Positions 1-63,641 of a DNA stretch of 64,000 bases are shown in pieces. Both the position numbers and the translations under genes were made by a program. Position 1 is the stretch's first letter. Every line of letters starts with the position of its first letter. The notes under the pieces were generated by a model. That model was given only the letters and a program-made list of their open reading frames with translations, searched no databases and had not been told where the DNA came from. Source of the DNA: Escherichia coli (GTDB taxonomy: Bacteria; Pseudomonadota; Gammaproteobacteria; Enterobacterales; Enterobacteriaceae); NCBI RefSeq assembly GCF_044647545.1, contig NZ_CP172818.1, one strand, 5' to 3'.

Positions 1-267
1 AAAGCGGTAGGTTTCCGGGAACAGATAGCCGGTATCGGTGAGGATCACTGGAATATCCGGGTGAATCTGATTCACCAGATGCAGGCTCACCGCCGCCTGA
101 ATGCCAAAGCTGGAAGAAAGTACATATTCACCAGGCAGATTATCCAGCGCCCAGGCAACGCGGCCTTCAGCGTCCAGTTTTTCCAGTTCGGCGTTAGTTT
201 CCGCCAGCGCCAGAATGCGATCTACCTTCGGCAGTTCGTTCAGGGCGTTTAGATCGAGTTTGGACAT
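1..267 (-). CDS. cysH: phosphoadenosine phosphosulfate (PAPS) reductase, 3' end beyond window
   Basis: Reverse-strand translation from the ATG at 265-267 gives [32 protein letters not shown]..., recognised as the CysH N-terminus; lies downstream of cysI on the same strand. Confidence 0.9.
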
Positions 268-8508: not shown

Positions 8509-9823
8509 TCGCACCTCCTACATTTCCCGCCGCCACCAGCGGGAGTGCTTTGGTTTCTGGTGCCCATAGCCAGGTCACAACAAAACCAACCAACAACACT
8601 GCCGCCAGGAGCAATAAGGTGGCTTGCATTCCCCACTGCGCCAGCACCCACGGCAGCAGGCCAGTACTTACCGCCGCCCCCAACCGACTCATGGCGGTGG
8701 CAAAACCGACGCCCAGCGAGCGAATGTCAGTAGGAAAACTTTCCGCAGGCAAAATGCCCACCAGATTACTGACTGCCGAAATGGTGGTGCTGAAGAGAAC
8801 AAAAAGCAGCAGCGTTAATGAACTGCCGGAAGGCAAACAGGCCATCACTACCAGCGTTGCCGCCAGCAGCAAAAAACTTCCCAGCAAAAACTTGCGATGT
8901 GCCAGCAGGTGCGTCAGAACTAATCCCAGCAGCGCGCCCACAATTAACAACGCATTAAGCATCAGGCTGGCGGTCAGCGCATCCTCCAGACCAATAGTCT
9001 GGGCGATGGTCGGCAGCCAGGTATAAATCACAAACCATGGGATTACGAGGCAGACAAAGAAGACGCTGTTAAACGCCGTGCGTCGCCAGTAGCGCGAAGA
9101 AAACAAGGTTTTGATGTGTTTATGGGTCGCCGCTGCCACTTCATCGCCCAGTAAAACATGTGGCCCCAAATAGCGATGCACAATAGCGTGAGCTTCAGCA
9201 AAACGTCCCTGGCGCAGTAGCCAGCGTGGCGATTCCGGCGTGCCCCAACGTAGCAGCGTAATCAGCAAGGCTGGTAACGCCGCTGATGCCAGCAGCCAGC
9301 GCCAGGCCTCCGGGTTTTCGGAAATAAAGTGATGTCCGGCAATACTTGCCAACACATAGCCTACGGTCCACACCACGCTGAATGCGCCCAGTAAAATACC
9401 GCGATGGCGGCGCGGGGAAAATTCAGCCAGCAAGGTGTGACCGACTGAGTAATCGCCTCCCAGACCAATGCCGATCAAAATGCGCAGCCCAATAAGATGC
9501 TCTGGCGTGGTGGCAAAAAATTGCAAGAACGAAGCGAGCGTAATCAGCAAAAAGCTGAAGGTGAAGATTTTTTGCCGACCAATATGGTCGGAGATCCATC
9601 CAAGAACCAGGCTGCCAAGAAACAAACCAAGGAGTGCTGAGCCGCCAATCATTCCCGCCATAAACGGCGTCAGTTGCATGGCTGGAGTAAGCTGAATAAT
9701 GGCGTAACCAATGACGCCGAGGACATAACCGTCGGTCAGGTGCGCACCGAAAGTGAGCGCAGCAATGCGGCAGTGAAAACGGTTAAGTGGTAAATCATCC
9801 ATTCGCACCGGTGAAGTGTTCAT
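8486..9823 (-). CDS. ygcS: MFS transporter (sugar-porter-like)
   Basis: ORF track 8486-9913; likely start at MNTSPVRMDDLPLNRF (ATG at 9823; the long form is an alternative); multiple hydrophobic TM segments. Confidence 0.8.
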   Translation of the reverse strand: MNTSPVRMDDLPLNRFHCRIAALTFGAHLTDGYVLGVIGYAIIQLTPAMQLTPFMAGMIGGSALLGLFLGSLVLGWISDHIGRQKIFTFSFLLITLASFLQFFATTPEHLIGLRILIGIGLGGDYSVGHTLLAEFSPRRHRGILLGAFSVVWTVGYVLASIAGHHFISENPEAWRWLLASAALPALLITLLRWGTPESPRWLLRQGRFAEAHAIVHRYLGPHVLLGDEVAAATHKHIKTLFSSRYWRRTAFNSVFFVCLVIPWFVIYTWLPTIAQTIGLEDALTASLMLNALLIVGALLGLVLTHLLAHRKFLLGSFLLLAATLVVMACLPSGSSLTLLLFVLFSTTISAVSNLVGILPAESFPTDIRSLGVGFATAMSRLGAAVSTGLLPWVLAQWGMQATLLLLAAVLLVGFVVTWLWAPETKALPLVAAGNVGGANEHSVSV

Positions 9824-9916
9824 CTTTACCCCTTCATTGTCCGGTAATAAGAACGGCTTCTCGCCTGAGAAGCCGAAAAGGCAACGCCCCGTCATCGCGG
9901 AACGCTGCCTCACACA

Positions 9917-11371
9917 TTATTTTTCAATCGGATAGATAGTACCCGTATTCATAATGCCGTTAGGATCGAACTGTTTTTTCAGCCCTTCCAGCAACGTCCA
10001 CGCGCTGCCGTGTTCCAGTTTGCTCCAGTGAACGCGATGTTTACCAATACCGTGGTGGTGCACCATCGAACCGCCGAGACGAATGGTTTCTTCGCAGATG
10101 ATTTTGTTGAGCGGATTGTGGTACTTGTCGATTTCCTCTTCCGGCTTACAGTCAACGACGTTGTAGTCGTAGACGAAGTACATGTTGGTACCGTTCTGAT
10201 AGCTATGAGAGGAGTGACCGCCCAGCATGGTGATGTCGTCGGCGTGCGGGAACTCGGTACGAATACGGTTAATAACGCTTTCGTAGATTTCGTGGATGCA
10301 GCTCCAGCAGCCGGACACTTCGGTGGTAAAGCCCATGTTGCCGGTTTTGAGGATCTGCACACGTTCAGCGGCCACTTTATCCGGCCCCCAGTTCAGGTGA
10401 TTAAACCAGGTTTCGATCAGCTTGCTGTCCACGCGCTGGCATTGCGGGTAACGTGCCACGATTTCAGCAATCCCTTCGCCCGTCGCCTTCGCAATGCGAG
10501 GGTTACCTTCAGCCATAAAGATCAGCACGCATTTACCATCGGCAAAATGGGTGAAGTGTTGGGTGCCATCTTCAACGTCATATAAACGAGCGATCGACGG
10601 ACGATACCCTTCCACCATGATTTCACGCAGGATGTTGAAGCCGGTTTTCATATCTTCCAGGATATAGCCGTAGAAGAGGTTGTTTTCCGGGGTGAATTTA
10701 AAGATTTTCACTGTTACTTCAGTGATATAGCACAGTGCACCTTCGTTGCCGATGATGATGTGACGAATGTCCGGGCCAGCCGCGCGGCGTGGCACGTTTT
10801 TAATACGTGTGACGGTACCATCTGCCAGTACCGCTTCCAGACCAACGACCATATCTTCGATTGCGCCGTAGAGTGTGGAGAACTGCCCGATACTGCGGGT
10901 TGCTACCAGGCCGCCCATCTGCGCCAGCGGTTTTGATTGCGGTGAATGCCCCGTGGTGTAACCTTTTTCACGCAACGCGTTTTCCAGCACCTCCAGCGGA
11001 ACGCCACATTGCGCCGTGGCCTGCATATTCTCAATATCAATATTAATGATTTGATTCATGGCAGAGCCGTCGAGCACCACCGAGTTTTCCACAACGGTTT
11101 CCAGCCCGCCTTCAGTGGCGGAAGCACCGGTACGCGGCACACCGTTAATTTTGTGCGCATTCATAAAATTCAGCACACGGGACACTTGTTCTGTGGAACC
11201 GAGTTTTACGACCGCTGCCGGAATCGGCAAAGTATAAATGCCATGAATATCCGGAAATTTGCGAAAACGGTCAATACTGTTTTTCTTTAATACTGTTTCA
11301 TCGGTAATTACGCGATCTGCACCAACAATTTCCTTTAGCTGGTCGACAATCGCTGCGCGAGATAAAGACAT
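9917..11371 (-). CDS. ygcU: FAD-linked oxidase (GlcD / alkyl-DHAP-synthase-like)
   Basis: 484-aa ORF; FAD-binding PCMH-type N-terminal region; recognised as YgcU. Confidence 0.85.
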   Translation of the reverse strand: MSLSRAAIVDQLKEIVGADRVITDETVLKKNSIDRFRKFPDIHGIYTLPIPAAVVKLGSTEQVSRVLNFMNAHKINGVPRTGASATEGGLETVVENSVVLDGSAMNQIINIDIENMQATAQCGVPLEVLENALREKGYTTGHSPQSKPLAQMGGLVATRSIGQFSTLYGAIEDMVVGLEAVLADGTVTRIKNVPRRAAGPDIRHIIIGNEGALCYITEVTVKIFKFTPENNLFYGYILEDMKTGFNILREIMVEGYRPSIARLYDVEDGTQHFTHFADGKCVLIFMAEGNPRIAKATGEGIAEIVARYPQCQRVDSKLIETWFNHLNWGPDKVAAERVQILKTGNMGFTTEVSGCWSCIHEIYESVINRIRTEFPHADDITMLGGHSSHSYQNGTNMYFVYDYNVVDCKPEEEIDKYHNPLNKIICEETIRLGGSMVHHHGIGKHRVHWSKLEHGSAWTLLEGLKKQFDPNGIMNTGTIYPIEK

Positions 11372-11440
11372 AGTAATTCCTTCCTGATAATAAAAATGGA
11401 ATAATCATTAATAAGAGAAAACAGAAACCACCGTTATGGA

Positions 11441-12226
11441 TTAGCGCACTAAATAACCGCCATCGACCACTAATAAATGCCCGTTAACATAATTTGAAGC
11501 CGGACTTGCGAGGAAGACGGCTGCGCCCATTAAATCCTGTGTATCGCCCCAACGGTTTGCCGGAATATGATCAAGAACGCGCTGATTAGTTTCAGGATTA
11601 CTGCGTGTCGCCAGCGTAATATCTGTTGCATAATAACCTGGAGCAATACCATTTACCTGAATATTATATTGACCTAGTTCATCACAATAAGCTTTGGTGA
11701 ATCCAGCAAGAGCATGTTTAGTTGCAGAATATGCAGGTGACCATTGTCCACCTAAGTAAGAGAACAATGAACAGATATTAATAATTTTACCGCTTTTCTG
11801 CGGGATCATAATTTTTGCCGCTTCGTAGCTTAACTCGAATGCGGCGGTCAGGTTCACATCAATCATCGGGTCCCAGTCGGCACGACCGAAGTCCAGCACC
11901 TTATTCAGCTTACAAATACCGGCATTGTTAACCAGAATATCTACGGTACCGAAGCGCTCACAGCAGGCAGCGATAATCTTCTGCGGCGCGCCTTCTGCGG
12001 TGATATCCACCTGCATAAAATCAACTTCGACACCCTGTTTTTCAATCATTTCCTTTGTTTCGCCGTTATCTTTGACGAAGCTAGGGATAAAGACATTTGC
12101 GCCAGCTTTGGCCAACGCCATGGCAAATGCCTGGCCTAAACCGCTATTCCCGCCGGTAACAATTGCTGTTTTACCTTTCAGGGAGAAAAAATCCATTGAG
12201 AACGCATTGAGAGATTCGATTGACAT
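11441..12226 (-). CDS. ygcW: short-chain dehydrogenase/reductase (SDR)
   Basis: ORF track 11441-12301; likely start MSIESLNAF...; TGGNSGLG cofactor motif and Y..K catalytic pair. Confidence 0.85.
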   Translation of the reverse strand: MSIESLNAFSMDFFSLKGKTAIVTGGNSGLGQAFAMALAKAGANVFIPSFVKDNGETKEMIEKQGVEVDFMQVDITAEGAPQKIIAACCERFGTVDILVNNAGICKLNKVLDFGRADWDPMIDVNLTAAFELSYEAAKIMIPQKSGKIINICSLFSYLGGQWSPAYSATKHALAGFTKAYCDELGQYNIQVNGIAPGYYATDITLATRSNPETNQRVLDHIPANRWGDTQDLMGAAVFLASPASNYVNGHLLVVDGGYLVR

Positions 12227-12544
12227 AGTTAGCTCCAATTTCCGTAAGGCAAAAAAAAAGAAAGGTAACTTCCCCCGCGAGAGGGAAGTTACCTTTCTCA
12301 TTATCTCTGGTAACTGGAGATAATTTTTAGCATAAGGGCATAAGCGCTAATGTGATCGTAATCACAGTGTGATATTCGTATTATCAAATAATTTTAAAAA
12401 GCAGAAGCGTGACTACTCTCACACAACACCACTGCTTTCCATGTTATTTCTTATTGCAATTACTAGAGACCTGAGAAAAGTAATCCACCTGAAAGGGCGG
12501 CTTACTTTTCTCTTTTTTTTGTCTATTACAAATGGGAATACGAT

Positions 12545-13848: not shown

Positions 13849-15327
13849 ATGTCGAAAAAATACATCATAGGGATTGATGGCGGAAGTCAGAGCACAAAAG
13901 TGGTGATGTACGATCTGGAAGGTAATGTGGTTTGCGAAGGCAAAGGCTTATTGCAGCCGATGCACACGCCAGATGCCGATACCGCAGAACATCCTGACGA
14001 CGATTTATGGGCATCATTATGTTTTGCCGGTCACGATTTGATGAGTCAGTTTGCCGGAAATAAAGAAGATATTGTCGGTATTGGTCTGGGATCCATCCGT
14101 TGCTGCCGTGCGTTATTGAAAGCCGATGGCACGCCAGCTGCGCCGTTGATTAGCTGGCAGGATGCACGCGTTACACGCCCTTACGAACATACGAATCCTG
14201 ACGTGGCATATGTCACCTCTTTTTCAGGTTATCTGACGCATCGCTTAACCGGCGAGTTTAAAGACAATATCGCCAACTATTTTGGTCAGTGGCCGGTGGA
14301 TTATAAGACCTGGGCATGGAGTGAAGATGCCGCAGTCATGGAGAAGTTTAATATCCCCCGTCATATGCTGTTTGATGTGCAAATGCCGGGCACTGTTCTT
14401 GGGCATATCACTCCTCAAGCCGCGCTGGCGACACATTTCCCAGCTGGGCTGCCGGTTGTTTGTACCACCAGTGATAAACCGGTAGAAGCTCTGGGAGCCG
14501 GATTACTGGATGATGAAACGGCGGTGATTTCTCTTGGCACCTACATCGCGCTGATGATGAACGGTAAAGCACTGCCGAAAGATCCGGTGGCGTACTGGCC
14601 GATTATGTCTTCTATTCCGCAAACATTGCTGTATGAAGGTTACGGTATTCGCAAAGGCATGTGGACGGTGAGCTGGCTGCGCGACATGTTAGGCGAGTCG
14701 TTAATTCAGGATGCCAAAGCACAGGATCTTTCACCGGAAGATTTGCTCAACAAAAAAGCGTCTTGTGTGCCGCCTGGCTGTAATGGTCTGATGACGGTGC
14801 TGGACTGGCTGACCAATCCGTGGGAACCATACAAACGCGGGATTATGATCGGCTTTGATTCCAGCATGGATTACGCATGGATATATCGTTCGATACTGGA
14901 AAGCGTGGCGCTGACGCTGAAGAACAATTACGACAATATGTGTAATGAAATGAATCACTTTGCAAAGCATGTGATCATTACTGGCGGCGGTTCGAACAGC
15001 GATCTGTTTATGCAGATTTTTGCCGACGTGTTCAACCTTCCGGCACGCCGTAACGCCATTAATGGTTGTGCAAGTCTGGGGGCAGCGATCAATACGGCGG
15101 TAGGTCTGGGGCTATACCCGGATTACGCAACGGCTGTCGACAAAATGGTTCGCGTGAAAGATATCTTTATGCCTGTTGAGAGCAACGCCAAACGCTACGA
15201 CGCGATGAATAAAGGCATTTTCAAAGACCTAACCAAGCACACTGATGTGATCCTGAAAAAATCGTATGAAGTGATGCATGGTGAGCTGGGGAATGAAGAT
15301 TCGATCCAGAGCTGGTCGAATGCGTAA
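13849..15327 (+). CDS. ygcE: FGGY-family carbohydrate kinase
   Basis: 492-aa ORF; N-terminal IGIDGGSQSTKVV sugar-kinase motif. Confidence 0.85.
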   Translation: MSKKYIIGIDGGSQSTKVVMYDLEGNVVCEGKGLLQPMHTPDADTAEHPDDDLWASLCFAGHDLMSQFAGNKEDIVGIGLGSIRCCRALLKADGTPAAPLISWQDARVTRPYEHTNPDVAYVTSFSGYLTHRLTGEFKDNIANYFGQWPVDYKTWAWSEDAAVMEKFNIPRHMLFDVQMPGTVLGHITPQAALATHFPAGLPVVCTTSDKPVEALGAGLLDDETAVISLGTYIALMMNGKALPKDPVAYWPIMSSIPQTLLYEGYGIRKGMWTVSWLRDMLGESLIQDAKAQDLSPEDLLNKKASCVPPGCNGLMTVLDWLTNPWEPYKRGIMIGFDSSMDYAWIYRSILESVALTLKNNYDNMCNEMNHFAKHVIITGGGSNSDLFMQIFADVFNLPARRNAINGCASLGAAINTAVGLGLYPDYATAVDKMVRVKDIFMPVESNAKRYDAMNKGIFKDLTKHTDVILKKSYEVMHGELGNEDSIQSWSNA

Positions 15328-15373
15328 GTGAGGAAGACCGGGCGGGAAACTGCCCGGCCTGAACATACCTGAA

Positions 15374-15510
15374 TGGTTATCCCCGCTGACGCGGGGAACA
15401 TAAGTTCGACAACTTAAAAAATGATAACAAGTCCGGTTTATCCCCGCTGATGCAGGGAACATAATAAAAACTTTAACTAGTTCGTTTATCCCTGTTGTTA
15501 CAAGGAATAT
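15374..15510 (-). CRISPR. Decayed CRISPR remnant: three degenerate type I-E repeats
   Basis: tggttatccccgctgacgcggggaacat (15374-15401), cggtttatccccgctgatgcagggaacat (15434-15462) and tcgtttatccctgttgttacaaggaatat (15482-15510) are mutated copies of the downstream repeat. Confidence 0.7.
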
Positions 15511-15964
15511 TAACTACACTCGATGTCTTTAGAATAAAAGACAATACGAATCGCACTTTATCAATTTTCACTTAAAGTATGAACTGGATATCTTTATTCA
15601 TAAGAACTATTCATCAACAGCGTATAGAGGCGGTTATGTAAAACCACTCATTAGCCTCAAAACAAAGACAAACTTCCAGATTTATTACTTAATCAATGAA
15701 TAACAAGCTTAAAAAATACACTGTTATTCTAAAGAAAAAATTAACAGGCATTAATTAATATTAAAAAAAATAATATATTAAAATTTCTTAACGGTTTAAG
15801 GATTATACAAATAACACTTTGATTAAATTTGATTTTTTGTATCGATAATTGTGAACTTATCTGGCATGGAGAACTATTTTGAACATGAGGTGTTATGTGG
15901 ATATGTTGCTTATTACAAGTACAGCTAATATAAAAACTTGAGAAAGAGATAACGGGTTATATGG
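15511..15964. other. AT-rich non-coding spacer between the CRISPR remnant and the intact array (possible fossil leader)
   Basis: No credible ORFs; strongly AT-rich; sits on the leader side of the degenerate repeats by analogy with the intact array. Confidence 0.4.
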
Positions 15965-16367
15965 TGGTTCATCCCCGCTGGCGCGGGGAACACGTCTTTT
16001 TGACCGGCCGGTAAATCGTCTGCCTGCGGTTTATCCCCGCTGGCGCGGGGAACACAAACCATTCTCGCAATCAAGGACTATTCCTAGACGGTTTATCCCC
16101 GCTGGCGCGGGGAACACGGTCGCAGGGAATACAAAGCCGTGCATCCTGCTCGGTTTATCCCCGCTGGCGCGGGGAACACTGGCTCTGCAACAGCAGCACT
16201 ATGACCCCGTCGGTTTATCCCCGCTGGCGCGGGGAACACGAAAAGCTTATGATCGTTAATGCCGCAAACACCGGTTTATCCCCGCTGGCGCGGGGAACAC
16301 ATTACACCTATGTGCGAGCGCCCGGTTTTTGCCGCTAGCGGTTTATCCCCGCTGGCGCGGGGAACAC
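15965..16367 (-). CRISPR. Type I-E CRISPR array, 7 repeats and 6 spacers, no adjacent cas genes
   Basis: Repeat cggtttatccccgctggcgcggggaacac (29 bp) at 16027, 16089, 16151, 16211, 16272 and 16339, plus a degenerate terminal copy at about 15965; spacers 31-38 bp; orientation inferred from the AT-rich leader on the high-coordinate side. Confidence 0.95.
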
Positions 16368-16600
16368 TCTAAACATAACCTATTATTAATTAATGATTTT
16401 TTAAGCCAGTCACAATCTACCAACTTTATAGTATCACACAAACAACACATCCATTATGTTAAAGAGCACTTAATCCATTGATTAAAAAGGTAAATATTTA
16501 AAATAACTCTATACAAACTAAAATCTACCAAACTTTACCGCAATAATTTTCACTCCAGCGAAAAATTAACGCCACAGAATTTGTAGAGAATGATAATGAT
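16368..16600 (-). promoter_or_regulatory. Putative CRISPR leader (AT-rich, promoter-containing)
   Basis: AT-rich ORF-free stretch directly abutting the best-conserved repeat; the degenerate repeat lies at the opposite end of the array. Confidence 0.6.
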
Positions 16601-16706
16601 TAGTTCAGGATGGGCAAGATGGATGAGTTTTCAGAGGCGACAAACAATATAAATGAGTAGAAGTCTTTACAGGTTCCACCCATTTATAACGCTTATAAAT
16701 GTTTAA

Positions 16707-17378
16707 TCAGGCAATATTTAGATATTTATGTGTTTGCATCGACAAACGCCAATTACGCGCAATGCAGGTTTCAATGCACAAACGTGTGGCATCATCCTTT
16801 TGGCTAATCGGCTGCAGTGCAATGACTCGCGGTTTATCATCGGTCAGCGTTGCCAGTAGTTCATCCAGTGCTTCAATATCACGTACGCGCCCCACTGGAT
16901 GCTTGATTTCGTTGGCTCGCTCCAGTGCCTGTGACAACACTTCATAGCCGCCGCGCATGTTCAACTTTGGTGATACGGTAACCCAGGTATTCGGTGTGCA
17001 GCGTACCTCATGAGTACCACTGGTTTCGATCTGGCAGCTAAAACCGTTCTTTTCGAGCAGATCAGTCAGTGGCAGCAAATCATGAATGCAAGGCTCACCA
17101 CCCGTAATCACCACATGCCGTGCGGTGTATCCCTGGCGACCAATGACAGCCAGCAAATCTTCACTGCTCGCAGCCCCCCACTTATCACTCTCTTTGGTCT
17201 TCGCCAGAATGCTGAAAAGGGAGACTTCCCGATCCTCAAGCTTTTCCCAGGTGTGTTTGGTGTCGCACCAGGCACAGCCAACCGGGCATCCCTGTAAACG
17301 AATAAAAATGGCGGGGACGCCGGTAAAGTAACCCTCACCTTGCAGGGTCTGGAACATCTCGTTAATCGGGTACTGCAT
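16707..17378 (-). CDS. queE: 7-carboxy-7-deazaguanine synthase (radical SAM)
   Basis: 223-aa ORF; CxxxCxxC-like radical-SAM motif (QGCPVGCAWCDTKH) near the N-terminus. Confidence 0.9.
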   Translation of the reverse strand: MQYPINEMFQTLQGEGYFTGVPAIFIRLQGCPVGCAWCDTKHTWEKLEDREVSLFSILAKTKESDKWGAASSEDLLAVIGRQGYTARHVVITGGEPCIHDLLPLTDLLEKNGFSCQIETSGTHEVRCTPNTWVTVSPKLNMRGGYEVLSQALERANEIKHPVGRVRDIEALDELLATLTDDKPRVIALQPISQKDDATRLCIETCIARNWRLSMQTHKYLNIA

Positions 17379-27017: not shown

Positions 27018-29774
27018 ATGACCAACTACAGCCTGCGCGCACGCATGATGATTCTGATCCTGGCACCGACCGTCCTTATTGGTTTATTGCTGAGTATCTT
27101 TTTCGTCGTGCATCGCTATAACGACTTGCAGCGTCAACTGGAAGATGCCGGTGCCAGCATTATTGAGCCGCTTGCAGTTTCTACTGAATATGGCATGAGT
27201 CTGCAAAATCGCGAATCTATCGGTCAGTTAATAAGCGTACTGCATCGTCGCCATTCCGATATTGTTCGCGCGATTTCGGTTTATGATGAAAATAACCGAC
27301 TCTTTGTCACCTCCAATTTTCATCTTGATCCCTCATCAATGCAGCTCGGCAGCAACGTGCCGTTTCCTCGCCAGCTCACTGTCACTCGTGACGGCGATAT
27401 TATGATCCTCCGCACGCCGATTATTTCTGAGAGTTACTCCCCCGACGAATCGCCCAGTAGCGATGCCAAAAATAGTCAAAATATGTTGGGATATATTGCG
27501 CTGGAGCTGGATCTTAAATCGGTTCGCTTGCAGCAATATAAAGAGATCTTTATTTCCAGCGTGATGATGCTGTTTTGTATCGGTATTGCGCTTATTTTTG
27601 GCTGGCGCTTAATGCGCGATGTAACCGGTCCGATTCGCAACATGGTGAATACCGTCGACCGCATCCGTCGCGGGCAACTCGACAGCCGGGTGGAAGGATT
27701 TATGCTTGGTGAGCTGGATATGCTGAAAAACGGTATCAACTCGATGGCAATGTCGCTGGCGGCTTATCACGAAGAGATGCAACACAATATCGACCAGGCG
27801 ACGTCCGATCTGCGTGAGACGCTGGAGCAAATGGAGATTCAGAACGTTGAGTTGGATCTGGCGAAAAAGCGCGCCCAGGAAGCGGCGCGTATTAAATCCG
27901 AGTTTCTGGCAAATATGTCACACGAGCTGCGTACACCACTGAATGGTGTTATTGGCTTTACCCGCCTGACGCTGAAAACAGAATTAACACCAACGCAGCG
28001 CGATCACCTGAATACGATTGAACGTTCGGCAAATAATTTGCTGGCAATTATTAATGATGTTCTCGACTTCTCGAAACTGGAAGCAGGTAAGCTGATTCTG
28101 GAAAGTATTCCATTCCCACTACGCAGCACGCTGGATGAAGTCGTTACCCTGCTGGCACATTCTTCTCACGATAAAGGGCTGGAACTGACGCTCAATATTA
28201 AAAGCGACGTGCCTGATAACGTGATCGGCGACCCACTACGATTACAGCAAATCATCACTAACCTGGTGGGGAATGCAATTAAATTCACCGAGAATGGCAA
28301 CATTGATATTCTGGTAGAAAAACGTGCGCTGAGTAATACCAAAGTGCAAATTGAAGTGCAGATTCGGGATACCGGCATTGGTATTCCTGAACGCGATCAA
28401 TCGCGCTTATTCCAGGCCTTCAGACAGGCTGATGCCAGTATTTCCCGCCGTCATGGTGGCACCGGGCTGGGGCTGGTGATTACACAAAAACTGGTTAATG
28501 AAATGGGCGGCGATATTTCGTTCCATAGCCAGCCGAATCGCGGTTCAACTTTCTGGTTCCACATTAATCTCGATCTGAACCCGAACATTATTATCGAAGG
28601 GCCATCCACCCAGTGCCTCGCCGGCAAGCGCCTGGCCTATGTCGAACCAAACTCCGCAGCAGCGCAATGCACGCTGGATATTTTAAGTGAAACGCCGCTG
28701 GAAGTGGTTTATAGCCCAACGTTCTCTGCGCTGCCTCCCGCGCATTACGACATGATGTTGTTAGGCATCGCGGTGACCTTCCGCGAGCCGCTAACAATGC
28801 AACATGAGCGATTAGCGAAAGCAGTATCGATGACCGATTTTCTGATGCTGGCACTTCCTTGCCATGCACAAGTCAATGCTGAAAAACTTAAGCAAGATGG
28901 TATCGGCGCGTGTCTGCTGAAACCATTAACACCTACGCGCCTGTTACCTGCCCTGACGGAATTTTGTCATCACAAACAAAACACGCTTTTGCCTGTAACC
29001 GATGAAAGTAAGCTGGCAATGACAGTCATGGCGGTTGATGACAACCCCGCTAACCTGAAACTTATCGGCGCATTGCTGGAAGATATGGTGCAACATGTGG
29101 AACTTTGCGATAGCGGGCATCAGGCGGTTGAACGGGCGAAACAGATGCCGTTCGATTTGATCTTAATGGATATTCAAATGCCGGACATGGACGGCATTCG
29201 GGCCTGCGAACTCATCCACCAGCTCCCCCATCAGCAACAAACGCCGGTTATCGCGGTAACGGCGCATGCAATGGCCGGGCAAAAAGAGAAGCTGCTTGGC
29301 GCAGGGATGAGCGATTATCTGGCGAAACCGATTGAAGAAGAGCGATTGCATAATTTGTTGTTGCGCTATAAGCCTGGCAGCGGTATTTCCTCTCGCGTCG
29401 TGACGCCCGAAGTCAACGAAATTGTGGTGAACCCGAATGCGACCCTCGACTGGCAACTGGCACTACGCCAGGCAGCAGGAAAAACCGATTTAGCGCGCGA
29501 TATGCTGCAAATGTTACTCGATTTCCTGCCTGAAGTTCGCAACAAAGTTGAGGAACAGCTGGTTGGAGAAAACCCGGAAGGCCTGGTTGATTTGATTCAT
29601 AAACTGCATGGCAGTTGCGGCTATAGCGGTGTGCCGCGTATGAAGAATCTCTGCCAACTGATCGAACAACAGCTACGTAGCGGTACTAAAGAAGAAGATT
29701 TGGAGCCGGAGCTGCTGGAACTGTTGGACGAGATGGATAATGTAGCGCGCGAAGCCAGCAAAATTCTCGGGTAA
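27018..29774 (+). CDS. barA: hybrid sensor histidine kinase BarA
   Basis: 918-aa ORF; two N-terminal TM segments, HAMP, H-box (SHELRTPLN), receiver domain, C-terminal HPt. Confidence 0.96.
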
Positions 29775-36073: not shown

Positions 36074-36118
36074 AAAGCAACCTCAATAAGAAAAACTGCC
36101 GCGAAGGATAGCAGGAAT

Positions 36119-36483
36119 AAAAAAAGGGAGCACTGTATTCACAGTGCTCCCGGTTCGTTTCGCAGCATTCCAGCTACTTTTGTTGCTCCCTGCTCATCCT
36201 TGACAACTTTTCCTCTGGCCTTGCGGCCAATCGTTCATCCTGAACTATTGCTTCCTGCTCACACCACCCCGATGTGATACTTCATCCTGAAGTGTCCCTG
36301 GCCTTCCTGACCCACCGAATCATCCTGACCGGTTCTCATTCTCCATCCTGGAGGTGTCCTTTAACGCGTCCTGCGTCATCCTCTTCGCTTCATCCAGAAG
36401 CCTTTCCCTGAAACACCATCCTGGTGTGTCCTTCAGAAGTGTCATCATCCTGATGTTCACTTCGTTGTCTGACTCCCTGTCGA
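36119..36483 (-). ncRNA. csrB: CsrB small RNA (CsrA-sequestering)
   Basis: On the + strand, at least 6 perfect CATCCTG (CAGGAUG in the transcript) plus several variant GGA motifs within about 360 nt; terminator gggagcactgtgaatacagtgctccc + U-run at the 3' end (36119-36151). Confidence 0.9.
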
Positions 36484-54704: not shown

Positions 54705-54910
54705 ACTTCCTGAGCCGGAACGAAAAGTTTTATCGGAATGCGTGTTCTGGTGAACTTTTGGCTTACGGTTGTGATGTTGTGTTGTTGTGTTTGCAATTGG
54801 TCTGCGATTCAGACCATGGTAGCAAAGCTACCTTTTTTCACTTCCTGTACATTTACCCTGTCTGTCCATAGTGATTAATGTAGCACCGCCTAATTGCGGT
54901 GCTTTTTTTT
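54705..54910 (+). ncRNA. gcvB: GcvB small RNA
   Basis: acttcctgagccggaacgaaaag...; GU-rich seed gttgtgatgttgtgttgttgtgtttgc; terminator gcaccgcctaattgcggtgc + T8; divergent from gcvA. Confidence 0.92.
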
Positions 54911-59232: not shown

Positions 59233-59309
<77 letters not shown>

Positions 59310-59342
59310 ATTAAAATTTGATGAAGTAAAGCAGTACGGTGA

Positions 59343-59419
<77 letters not shown>

Positions 59420-59452
59420 ATCAAAATTTAATGAAGTAAAGTAGTACGGTGA

Positions 59453-59529
<77 letters not shown>

Positions 59530-62500
59530 ATTATCTGAATACCCAAGTTTTCACAATCGTTTTTTTTATTTAAATCTTTCCTGAATCACAAAGTTTTTTA
59601 TCTCCCTTCCTCGAATAATCAATTACACTAAATTATCCCTTTCTGTATACTCAATCCCCGATATCCTTGTAATGATATTTTCATTACATCTAAATTCCCA
59701 ACGTTCAACTAAACACATCCACCCCAAAACATTTCTTCTTCAATCACCTAATAAACCCCTCATCCACAACTCCCCCCATTGATGATCAACACATCCATCA
59801 TCACAAATATTTATACTAATAAATCTCCACTCAAAAAAACAAAAAACAATGATGAATCGACTCATAAAATATCTTCAATTATACAAATGAATCCACTTTT
59901 CACAACTAATCTTTTTTCAAAACTAAAACTCAACATCAAAACAATAACCTTCCCATTTTTCCAATATCGTACCAACACAATACGTTTACCTTTAACCCAC
60001 CATCACTCACCCATACCATTTTCATCCATGATACACCGATATTTTCATCCCGAAATAATCCAATGATAAATTCCCAACCATTTGAATTAATCCCAACCAT
60101 TATTACAATAATACTATTCCTCCACGAAATCAATATTTCTATCCCCTCCCGAATCTCGATATTATTTTCACACCAACACAATAACTTCCCCTATAACAAT
60201 CTTCCCAACCCAAATAATCTCTAATCATATTCTATTTAACAATCCCACATTATTCTTAATAATAAATTAAAATTATTCTCTCTACAACCCAAAACACTCT
60301 AAAACACTACCAAACATTTTTATACACACTCACTTCAAAAACCACCCCAAAAATACTTACTGTATTTATATTTTAAATTATGAATTTCTTTAACCATCAC
60401 CCCTGATGATAAACCGAAACACACATAAATTTTTTCAATTCAAATCAACCCACCCATCACCAACAACCAAACAACATCCACACATATCTAAACTAAATTA
60501 TCCCCTCACTTTACGATTTCAACAATAAATCACAACTTACCAACATATATACTAAAAAATCAAATAATTACCCATTTTTTTCAACACATTCCCAATTTCC
60601 CTCTCACACTTTTGAAATAAAATAACAACATCTCTTCCCACATCCAATCCTGTACCCTCCTACCTAACAAAAAACGAATCCTACTCAAAATCCGATTTTC
60701 CAATAAACCGACTTACCAACACCAATAAAAACAACTTTTCCCTACAAATTTATACTTTAATTAAAACGAATCAAAATATCAATAACTCTCTACTTAATTC
60801 TTACATAAAATTTTAATAATATATCTTATTCATTTTTATTCTCCCTGATTAATATTTTTAATTACACTCACAAACCGTAACCCCATATATAATTTTTCTC
60901 ACCCACCATTCAAGAATACCCTCCCCCTCCGTTCCATAACATCCCCCCATAACCATTTCCTTCATGAATTAACACTTAAAATTCATCAAAAGATAACCAA
61001 TACAAACAATCTACCAAAAAAACAACATCACTCCTACATCAATTCAATATTTTATTCAATACTAATTGAATTAACAATATTCTTTAATGATTTACATCCC
61101 AATCTAACAATAAACAATTATATTCATACTATGGATTTACAAAACTATACGATATCTTCTAACTTATGATTAAAATTACTCATTAAATCATAAGATCTTA
61201 TCAAATTAAATTCATATCATTATACTACTACTTTTTCTTTTTTTATTTTAACCGATGTAACTACTCATTAAAAACAAAATCACTATGATTTCATCTAACA
61301 TAACAAATTATCCTTAACCACATTTTATATTCTTCTTCCACCAACTTCCTCGTTATGAGATTACATAATAACACCATCTCTTTTATCTTAAACAAATCCC
61401 ATTATACTACCCCCCTCATTTTTTATAATCAAAACTTCAAATATTCCCTATTTTTTACATCAAAAACATTAAACATTAAAAACAAATATTATCACACGAT
61501 CAATAATCTATTCTTTTCAATAATACATCACATCTATATTATCCATTCATTTTATCTTTTATATTTTATAAACCATTTACTACCATTCAATATTCACATT
61601 CAAACAGTACCTAAAATCTTTCCAAGTTTTCTTAATCCCTACACACTTCTTATCAAATCCATATCTAAATAAAATGTAATACATCTTTTACACCAAATCT
61701 CCCCAAAATCCCATTTACAATATTTCCTTCAAACAGTATTAAAAACATCCATCACATATCCATTATTATCCATATCCACCAACATGACTTTATACCGATA
61801 ATATTTATATTTTATCAATTTAATATAATTCCCCACTCTTTTTATTCTCCTCAATCAACCCATATCGATTTTAAACTAAAGATACCAATTATCCAGATTT
61901 AATATTCTCTTTACCACAATCCTTAACATCTCTCTCTTCACTCTATTTATCAACGTATATCCCTATACTATCCTCATACTTCACTACAATACTCTTCACC
62001 ACTCATCAGTTAAATTTAAAATACAACAACACAAAGTAATAAATAAAAAATACCACTTCGACACACACCTATTCAACTTTCTTCCACCAAACCCAAACTA
62101 ATAAATTGAATCAACCCATAAATCCCATCTTCACCCCATAACAAACACGAATCCATTCATAAATCATAAACAAACACATACTACAAATAAAAAAAATCCA
62201 ACTCCTACCCCCAATAATGATTAACACCCCAAATAACAATCTTTATACTTTTCTTTTACATACATCGATACACCACCCACCACCAACATACTAATCATCA
62301 TTTCTTTCCATTTTCCCCCAAACCACAATACCATTCTCTACACCCATAAAATCATCCATAATACTCTCCCCCAATCACACCTAAACCGACGTAAACAAAA
62401 ATCACCAGATTTTAACCAAAAAACTCACTCCAACTCATAAAAAATAACCGAACAACCGAATATATCATCCAATGACATGAAAATTAAAAACCCAATAAAA

Positions 62501-63641
62501 GAATGATCAACCAAACCATCATCACAATCATTAATAACACAACCTATAAAAACTAATATCTAACTAAATTAACGTCTTTTTAACACCATAATAACCCACA
62601 ACAATTCCTCTAAACCTTATTTAACTGATCCCAAATATTTATCGACATTTACACACCAATAATCTCTTTTAAATAAAATTCTCCCAGACACCCATAAAAC
62701 AATAAAGAAAAACATATTTATCCTCTTTTTTTTAATAACCAAGAATTTACCAAACAAACATAATAACAAACAAACAAACCAAAACAATAAACAATATTTT
62801 TATTATGAAACCAAAATAATTAATCCATATCATCATCTAAACATCCACCTACATCACACATACAACAACAAGAAATAAACCTCATCTAAAAAAAATCCAC
62901 TTTCTTTTATTTCATATAAATTTATATATAAAATTAATACTACGAATAAAATATATTTTCTCTAAATACATATTTAAAACAACAATACTCAATTTATGAA
63001 TTAAAATTCTTTCTCAAAAATCATAATCACAATATTCTTTTTTTTATACATAAAACAAAAAAAATAATCATCATAACTTAAATTAAATAATCTCACTTAT
63101 AAAACCGATAACTTTATTTTTTAATAATAAAAAGCATAACAATGAATTCAATTATTTAAAACAAATAAAATTCATCAAATTAAACTAAATTATAATAACA
63201 CAATATTTACAATTTATCAAAAAAAATTATTATTTTACCAAAAAATAAAACAAAAAACAAAAATTTAATTTTTCAAATACACAAACAACAACAAAACAAC
63301 AAATACATAATAATATAACGGGTGTTTTTTTGTTTCTTGTCTCCCATAAAAGAGCCAGCCATCTCAGACGACATTCCATATTTTTTTTTAACCACCCACC
63401 CAGAAATATAACCTCTCCATTCACACTTACACAATTATTTCATACTTATATCAATACTCCCAAAAAAAACAACACTCAAATAATAATACTCAAACAATAA
63501 CATACAAAATAACAACAAACAAACGAATTTTTAATTAAAAACTTTATTTTCAACGACATTCAAAATCCACATCATCACAAAACATCTAATATTCATAAAT
63601 TTATCTATCAACGAAATATAAATTCATAATAAATAAAAACA
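59530..63641. other. ~4.1 kb compositionally anomalous, non-coding block (G-depleted on + strand), identity unknown
   Basis: Sampled 60-nt lines contain 0-4 G against roughly equal A, C and T; almost no ORFs on either strand; starts the base after the metV CCA and ends the base before the amiC stop codon. Confidence 0.9.

Follow-up and report, generated by a model that had tools for sequence, protein, structure and literature searches.

Probable non-orphan status and probable artefactual spacers of a canonical Escherichia coli CRISPR2.3 array

We found that the CRISPR array in a 64-kb stretch of Escherichia coli DNA (the whole of which is called the window here) is CRISPR2.3, which together with its leader and a CRISPR2.2 remnant represents the canonical and already known CRISPR-II locus of this species. 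Judged from the closest relatives of the window, the array appears not to be an orphan but to belong, as second array, to a single complete type I-E system. Its sole unusual aspect is the spacer content, for which a sequence artefact is very probably the best explanation. A canonical CRISPR-II that is not orphan and that is shown here with artefactual spacers is, with high confidence, the best explanation overall.

In E. coli, the type I-E system is laid out in two parts, CRISPR-I and CRISPR-II (Almendros et al. 2014; PMC3903273). CRISPR-I is situated between iap and cysH and contains CRISPR2.1 and the eight cas-E genes, and CRISPR-II is situated between ygcE and ygcF and contains CRISPR2.2 and CRISPR2.3, which are 0.5 kb apart, CRISPR2.3 having its own leader; the array promoters are carried by the leaders of CRISPR2.1 and CRISPR2.3 (PMC3903273). 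The gene order of the window, cysH'-cysIJ-queD-ygcNOPQRSUW-yqcE-ygcE-[array]-queE-ygcG-eno-pyrG-mazGFE-relA and then onward, is that of the E. coli chromosome. Gene positions confirmed the statement of the initial annotation that the array lies between ygcE and queE (formerly ygcF), and both the ygcE-ygcF/queE position and the gap of 0.5 kb between CRISPR2.2 and CRISPR2.3, by which CRISPR-II is defined, were found. The features of the locus are as follows.

1..267, minus strand: 5' part of cysH, which borders the CRISPR-I/cas locus; identical to relatives
13849..15327, plus strand: ygcE, left boundary gene of CRISPR-II, from gene order
15373..15510, minus strand: CRISPR2.2 remnant with three degenerate repeats (15373-15401, 15434-15462 and 15484-15510), from repeat search
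15965..16367, minus strand: CRISPR2.3 array of the CRISPR-II locus, seven repeats and six spacers, from repeat search
15965-15993, minus strand: degenerate terminal repeat of CRISPR2.3 with two mismatches, at the end far from the leader
16339-16367, minus strand: leader-proximal repeat of CRISPR2.3
16368..16600, minus strand: AT-rich CRISPR2.3 leader, from identity to ECONIH1 and K-12
16707..17378, minus strand: queE, right boundary gene of CRISPR-II, from gene order

On the plus strand, CGGTTTATCCCCGCTGGCGCGGGGAACAC occurred seven times, starting at 15965, 16027, 16089, 16151, 16211, 16272 and 16339. Six of the seven copies were exact and the first copy, 15965-15993, carried the two mismatches, while 0.00 repeat matches were expected by chance in 100 shuffled controls, which confirmed the earlier reading of a type I-E array with seven 29-nt repeats. 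In the crRNA sense the repeat is GTGTTCCCCGCGCCAGCGGGGATAAACCG, the reverse complement of the plus-strand copies and the canonical type I-E repeat. The minus-strand repeat RNA folds into a stem of 7 bp closed by a loop of 4 nt (-15.2 kcal/mol, z = -3.2); this stem-loop is of the type that Cas6e recognises, and binding of Cas6e is predicted here. RefSeq annotates 'CRISPR' at the homologous position in relatives, and no Rfam family matched the repeat when the whole window was searched at the gathering threshold and 15300-16700 at E <= 1, an uninformative outcome. The spacing of the repeats was irregular, at 62, 62, 62, 60, 61 and 67 nt. The CRISPR2.2 repeats, the irregular spacing and the start of the window within cysH are points absent from the initial annotation.

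As previously described, the leader flanks the array towards queE and the opposite end carries the degenerate repeat, and because of this placement the minus-strand reading proposed before is right. The leader was 100% identical to that of ECONIH1, and its first 150 to ~200 nt were identical to the K-12 CRISPR2.3 leader. A sigma-70 scan of the leader gave four sites against 3.9 expected; since this is at chance level, the placement of the promoter rests on the identity to the K-12 leader. No terminator was found in a scan of the leader, and a search for the IHF consensus gave one site with a single mismatch, which lies 116 nt upstream of the repeat and is shared with K-12. The CRISPR2.2 remnant has no leader of its own and contains a single spacer of 32 nt. 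ST648 has an identical remnant, and that of K-12 differs slightly, twice, in the third and most degenerate repeat. The window and K-12 CRISPR-II share the chromosomal position, the 29-nt repeat, the count of seven repeats and six spacers, an identical leader over ~200 nt, the CRISPR2.2 remnant 0.5 kb off and, judged from the relatives, cas3 16.8 kb off. Unlike K-12, however, the window has spacers 2-6 that are only 66-91% identical to those of K-12, with indels, a spacer 1 and a terminal repeat of the ST648-lineage type, and flanking DNA that is just 96-97% identical (96.3% on the left and 97.2% on the right). The biological weight of the locus is small, as it is a textbook second I-E array whose architecture, leader and H-NS silencing have long been established.

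The array had been called an orphan. As stated in the initial annotation, no cas gene lies within the window: when the eight Cas proteins of K-12 were used as tblastn queries, no homologue was detected in the 64 kb (best E = 0.2), whereas the same query in a close relative detected eight of the eight Cas proteins with 96-99.5% identity to K-12. Over its first 6 kb, the window showed 100% identity to a group of genomes, among them that of a strain named ST648, and the five nearest genomes (ST648, FDAARGOS_497, 1428, ECONIH1 and CLSC36), whose flanks are 99.99-100% identical to those of the window, were examined. In all five, the start codon of cas3 is found 827 bp left of window position 1, and cas3 is followed, again in all five, by casA, casB, cas7, cas5, cas6e, cas1, cas2 and CRISPR2.1, so that in this lineage, too, operon and CRISPR2.1 are placed between cysH and iap. 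The distance from array to cas operon in these relatives is 16.8 kb, equal to the K-12 layout. Because the cas operon begins 827 bp beyond the left edge in the relatives, we read 'orphan' as a window-edge effect; a full I-E operon at this place in all five nearest genomes contradicts the orphan call, and so does the split into CRISPR-I and CRISPR-II, which is the standard architecture of the E. coli I-E system (PMC3903273). An orphan array belongs to a genome that lacks the cognate cas genes, and the five relatives, taken as a proxy for the source strain, indicate that these genes would be present. Genuine orphan arrays, such as CRISPR-II in E. coli without cas-E, resemble the window in having a leader and an array with no cas gene in view, but differ from it in that every close relative of the window has the cas operon 16.8 kb away on the same chromosome.

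It could still be supposed that the cas-E genes, which many E. coli have lost, are gone from the source strain as well and that its CRISPR-II is an inert relic. The 64 kb free of cas genes is in keeping with such a loss, as are the persistence of CRISPR-II leaders and arrays in E. coli that lack cas (PMC3903273) and the frameshifted cas3 of one close relative. However, the start of cas3 lies 827 bp from the window edge in every one of the five genomes with 99.99-100% identical flanks, and the portion of cysH in the window is identical to that of these five genomes, so that we consider a loss in the source strain very unlikely. The relative with the frameshift is strain 1428, whose annotation lists cas3 as a pseudogene owing to a frameshift (9509-12174 of its examined stretch); therefore, I-E interference competence, or else assembly quality, would seem to differ within the lineage. 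With regard to method, our data illustrate that the call of an 'orphan array' from a fixed window may be a pure edge effect, here one of 827 bp.

Since leader and repeat are 100% identical to those of K-12, and the Cas proteins of the relatives 96-99.5% identical, the function of the array may be read from K-12. As in K-12, the leader would drive minus-strand transcription of a pre-crRNA, and Cas6e would cleave this RNA at the base of each repeat hairpin, giving crRNAs with an 8-nt 5' handle. These crRNAs would then be loaded into Cascade, which would recruit Cas3, and new spacers would be added at the leader end by Cas1-Cas2. H-NS acts in K-12 as a repressor of the Cascade-cas1-cas2 operon and of CRISPR2.1 (PMC4782391), and H-NS silencing is likewise stated in another source (PMC12248084). 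By analogy, we assume that the cas operon and CRISPR2.1 would be largely silent here as in K-12. The system should not be taken to be active in the source strain.

The flanks of the array do not differ at all from those of ECONIH1, the left flank (15,964 nt) and the right flank (1,907 nt) both being 100.000% identical (0 differences in 17,871 nt), and positions 1-59231 without the array showed ~6 differences from the ST648 assembly. The CRISPR2.3 arrays of the relatives begin with GTCCTGTTTTTGACCGGCGGTAAATGTTGCCTG and end at the leader with ACACCGGCGAGATCGTATTTTTTGCCGCTGAG. They contain 11-20 spacers, all of 32-33 nt (120 of 120); spacers that the five relatives share are the same to the letter, and only whole units distinguish one array from another. 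Spacers of the K-12 type behave in the same way: in 30 independent public contigs that carry them, 29 from metagenomes and one from a MAG, K-12 spacers 1-6 occurred 114 times, 113 times exactly and once with a single SNP, and 277 of the 279 spacers were 32-33 nt long. A uniform length of 32-33 nt is set by the Cas1-Cas2 ruler. The spacers of the window, designated w1-w6, measure 33, 33, 33, 31, 32 and 38 nt and depart from this length and from the 61-62-nt period that goes with it. Taken in sequence, they correspond one by one to the six spacers of K-12 CRISPR2.3 with 66-91% identity and with indels, w1 excepted, and have the following composition, where lineage denotes ST648/ECONIH1.

15994..16026, minus strand: spacer w1, 33 nt; lineage spacer 1 with six indel edits, 30/36 (83%)
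16056..16088, minus strand: spacer w2, 33 nt; the half on the ygcE side resembles lineage spacer 2 and the rest resembles K-12 spacer 2
16118..16150, minus strand: spacer w3, 33 nt; K-12 spacer 3, all four differences matching lineage spacer 3
16180..16210, minus strand: spacer w4, 31 nt; K-12 spacer 4 with three edits
16240..16271, minus strand: spacer w5, 32 nt; K-12 spacer 5 with four substitutions
16301..16338, minus strand: spacer w6, 38 nt; K-12 spacer 6 blended with the newest spacer of the lineage

The bases inserted in w1 match K-12 spacer 1, and 8 of the 10 non-K-12 positions in w2 match lineage spacer 2. Counted from the leader, the third lineage spacer fits both of the non-matching positions in w4, and the second matches all four substitutions in w5. 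The odd 6-nt tail of w6, ...GCCGCTAG, corresponds to the end of the newest lineage spacer, ...GCCGCTGAG. Over 200 nt of spacer, ~40 edits separate the window from its best natural parents. K-12-type spacers are recognised as a group by exact sharing, and every spacer of the window falls below 95% identity. None of w1-w6 was found at >= 95% identity among 5,426 complete E. coli genomes, and exact scans of metagenome and genome collections with w4 and w5 returned no spacer match. Compared with the lineage as represented by the five genomes, the window has flanks that are 99.99-100% identical, the same terminal repeat, and traces of lineage spacers 1-3 in w1-w3 and of the last three in w4-w6; unlike the lineage, it has six spacers against 11-20, none of which is identical to those of the lineage.

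When the lineage spacers were counted inward from the nearer flank, with the first three assigned to w1-w3 and the last three to w4-w6 (two-sided register), 196 of the 200 spacer positions matched the equally ranked K-12 spacer or the assigned lineage spacer. The lineage partner accounted for 40 of the 44 non-K-12 positions, against 22.1 +/- 3.1 for random lineage spacers (0 of 5,000 controls, z = 5.8); with w1 left out, it accounted for 27 of 31 positions against 15.5 +/- 2.6 (0 of 5,000 controls). This statistic is based on six spacers and on flexible pairwise alignments, in which a random spacer matches about half of the positions, and the control covers this. The contribution of the lineage fades inward across w1, w2 and w3, and its mirror image was predicted from the leader side and then found. 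A one-sided blend, in which lineage spacers 1-6 are counted from the left, fits w1-w3 but not w4-w6, whereas the two-sided blend fits all six. Because intra-spacer mosaics that fade from both flanks are a product of consensus or alignment of two arrays, we conclude that the spacers are very likely to be position-wise chimeras of the K-12-type six-spacer array, which is widespread, and the lineage array, in other words a sequence artefact. Such mosaics are not made by integration, by repeat-mediated recombination or by point mutation. Consensus, alignment and in-silico reconstruction are candidate sources of the artefact. The artefact model is incomplete, as a plain consensus referenced to K-12 would lose the lineage-specific flanks and the accessory island described below. 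The real strain most likely carries the 11-20-spacer array of the lineage.

Three other origins of the edits were considered and rejected: neutral drift, given 0 differences in the 17,871 nt of the flanks; adenine-specific (DGR-like) mutagenesis, given that all four bases are substituted and that indels occur too; and introgression from other Escherichia species, given an identical leader and no exact match in species-representative genomes.

A natural history can also be proposed, in which a strain of the ST648 lineage took a K-12-type array by recombination within the repeats and its spacers then diversified specifically or recombined with the resident spacers. That the spacers differ while repeats and leader are intact agrees with this proposal, and repeat-mediated recombination between arrays is plausible in itself. 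CRISPR loci of E. coli are documented to exchange modules (PMC3903273). Symmetric, indel-bearing mosaics within spacers are, however, foreign to repeat-mediated recombination, and spacers of 31 and 38 nt stand against 32-33 nt in 277 of 279 natural ones. Furthermore, no intermediate was present among the 5,426 genomes or the 30 contigs, the flanks show zero divergence, and elsewhere in the window there is a tract of G deletions that is plainly not of biological origin. We regard such a history as very improbable. That the spacers are real in a more general sense, the lineage array having been rewritten as intra-spacer mosaics of two lineages while its repeats stayed perfect, is in our judgement extremely improbable. 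If it were true, it would be remarkable, as it would mean a novel process of spacer-level recombination or diversification in type I-E arrays.

The initial annotation had taken the six unique spacers for a record of past invaders. A search of w1-w6 against 50,697 phage and 72,556 plasmid records gave no match at E <= 10, and together with the chimeric composition this disagrees with that view. Natural K-12 and ST648 spacers, searched with identical settings, served as positive control. Among them, K-12 spacer 5 (29287-29318 of the K-12 stretch) matched, after extension, genes for the portal protein in siphophages of Escherichia and Klebsiella at 29 of 32 positions. The bases adjacent to these phage portal protospacers (61-92 of the extracted phage stretches) are CGC and not the CTT PAM. 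Against the portal protospacer, w5 matched at 25 of 32 positions, as compared with 29 of 32 for K-12 spacer 5, and the phage agreed with K-12 at all four of the changes. Since all four changes move off the phage protospacer, w5 is better read as a degraded derivative than as an independent acquisition.

Independent acquisition of all six spacers from relatives of the donors of the K-12 spacers, which would make them real invader records, would be helped by the existence of variants in the portal protospacer family of K-12 spacer 5. Independent events cannot, however, yield six homologous spacers in an unchanged order; the changes in w5 increase the distance to the known protospacer, the unrelated spacers of the lineage, and not phage variants, account for the non-K-12 positions, and phage or plasmid matches were lacking even at E <= 10. 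Such an origin is scarcely conceivable. As far as can be read from their composition, w1-w6 do not appear to be sequences that Cas1-Cas2 integrated.

A self-matching spacer was observed among the natural spacers of the relatives. Spacer 7 of the lineage, GGATGAGCAGGGAGCAACAAAAGTAGCCGGAA, matched the host csrB sRNA gene at 31 of 32 positions (window 36168-36199, minus strand), and the same self-match occurred at 36360-36391 of a comparison sequence (L001). csrB lies ~20 kb from the array, the match is without the canonical CTT/AAG PAM, and this spacer is absent from the array of the window.

A second aberrant tract was found at 59544-63628, which in ECONIH1 is a five-gene accessory island between three tRNA-Met genes and amiC. 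Compared with ECONIH1 and ST648, the island has lost ~88% of its plus-strand G's with almost no substitutions, and is also short of ~10% of its T's and C's and ~2% of its A's. It has thereby shrunk from ~5.2 kb to ~4.1 kb, with a G content of ~2.5% and a GC skew of -0.8. Seven start-codon variants of three ORFs of the island had no counterpart on record among 15 billion proteins, and the protein look-up identified no public assembly that shares the corruption. No biological process removes G's in this way, and the loss is a non-biological corruption. A second corrupted tract in the same window supports the artefact reading of the spacers. Both aberrant stretches consist of strain-variable sequence, and the conserved core is perfect. 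Findings that rest on the strain-variable segments of this window, namely the spacers and the five-gene island, should not be trusted, and it needs to be checked where the sequence came from.

Several minor observations concern the remainder of the window. Three identical tandem tRNA-Met (CAT) genes at 59233-59529, upstream of the corrupted island, are present in ECONIH1 and missing from the ST648 assembly NZ_CP008697.1, where they have probably been collapsed. The break at 59.2 kb relative to the ST648 assembly was considered as a further anomaly and dismissed as natural, ECONIH1 having the same order. Single-base indels relative to the ST648 assembly were located at window positions 12251, 31550, 57881 and 59182, at least one of them within gudX, which is annotated as frameshifted in the ST648 assembly; this suggests that the indels are errors of the ST648 assembly and not of the window. 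The CsrB and GcvB sRNA genes, at 36116-36475 and 54705-54910 of the window, gave high-score Rfam matches and are ordinary core features of E. coli.
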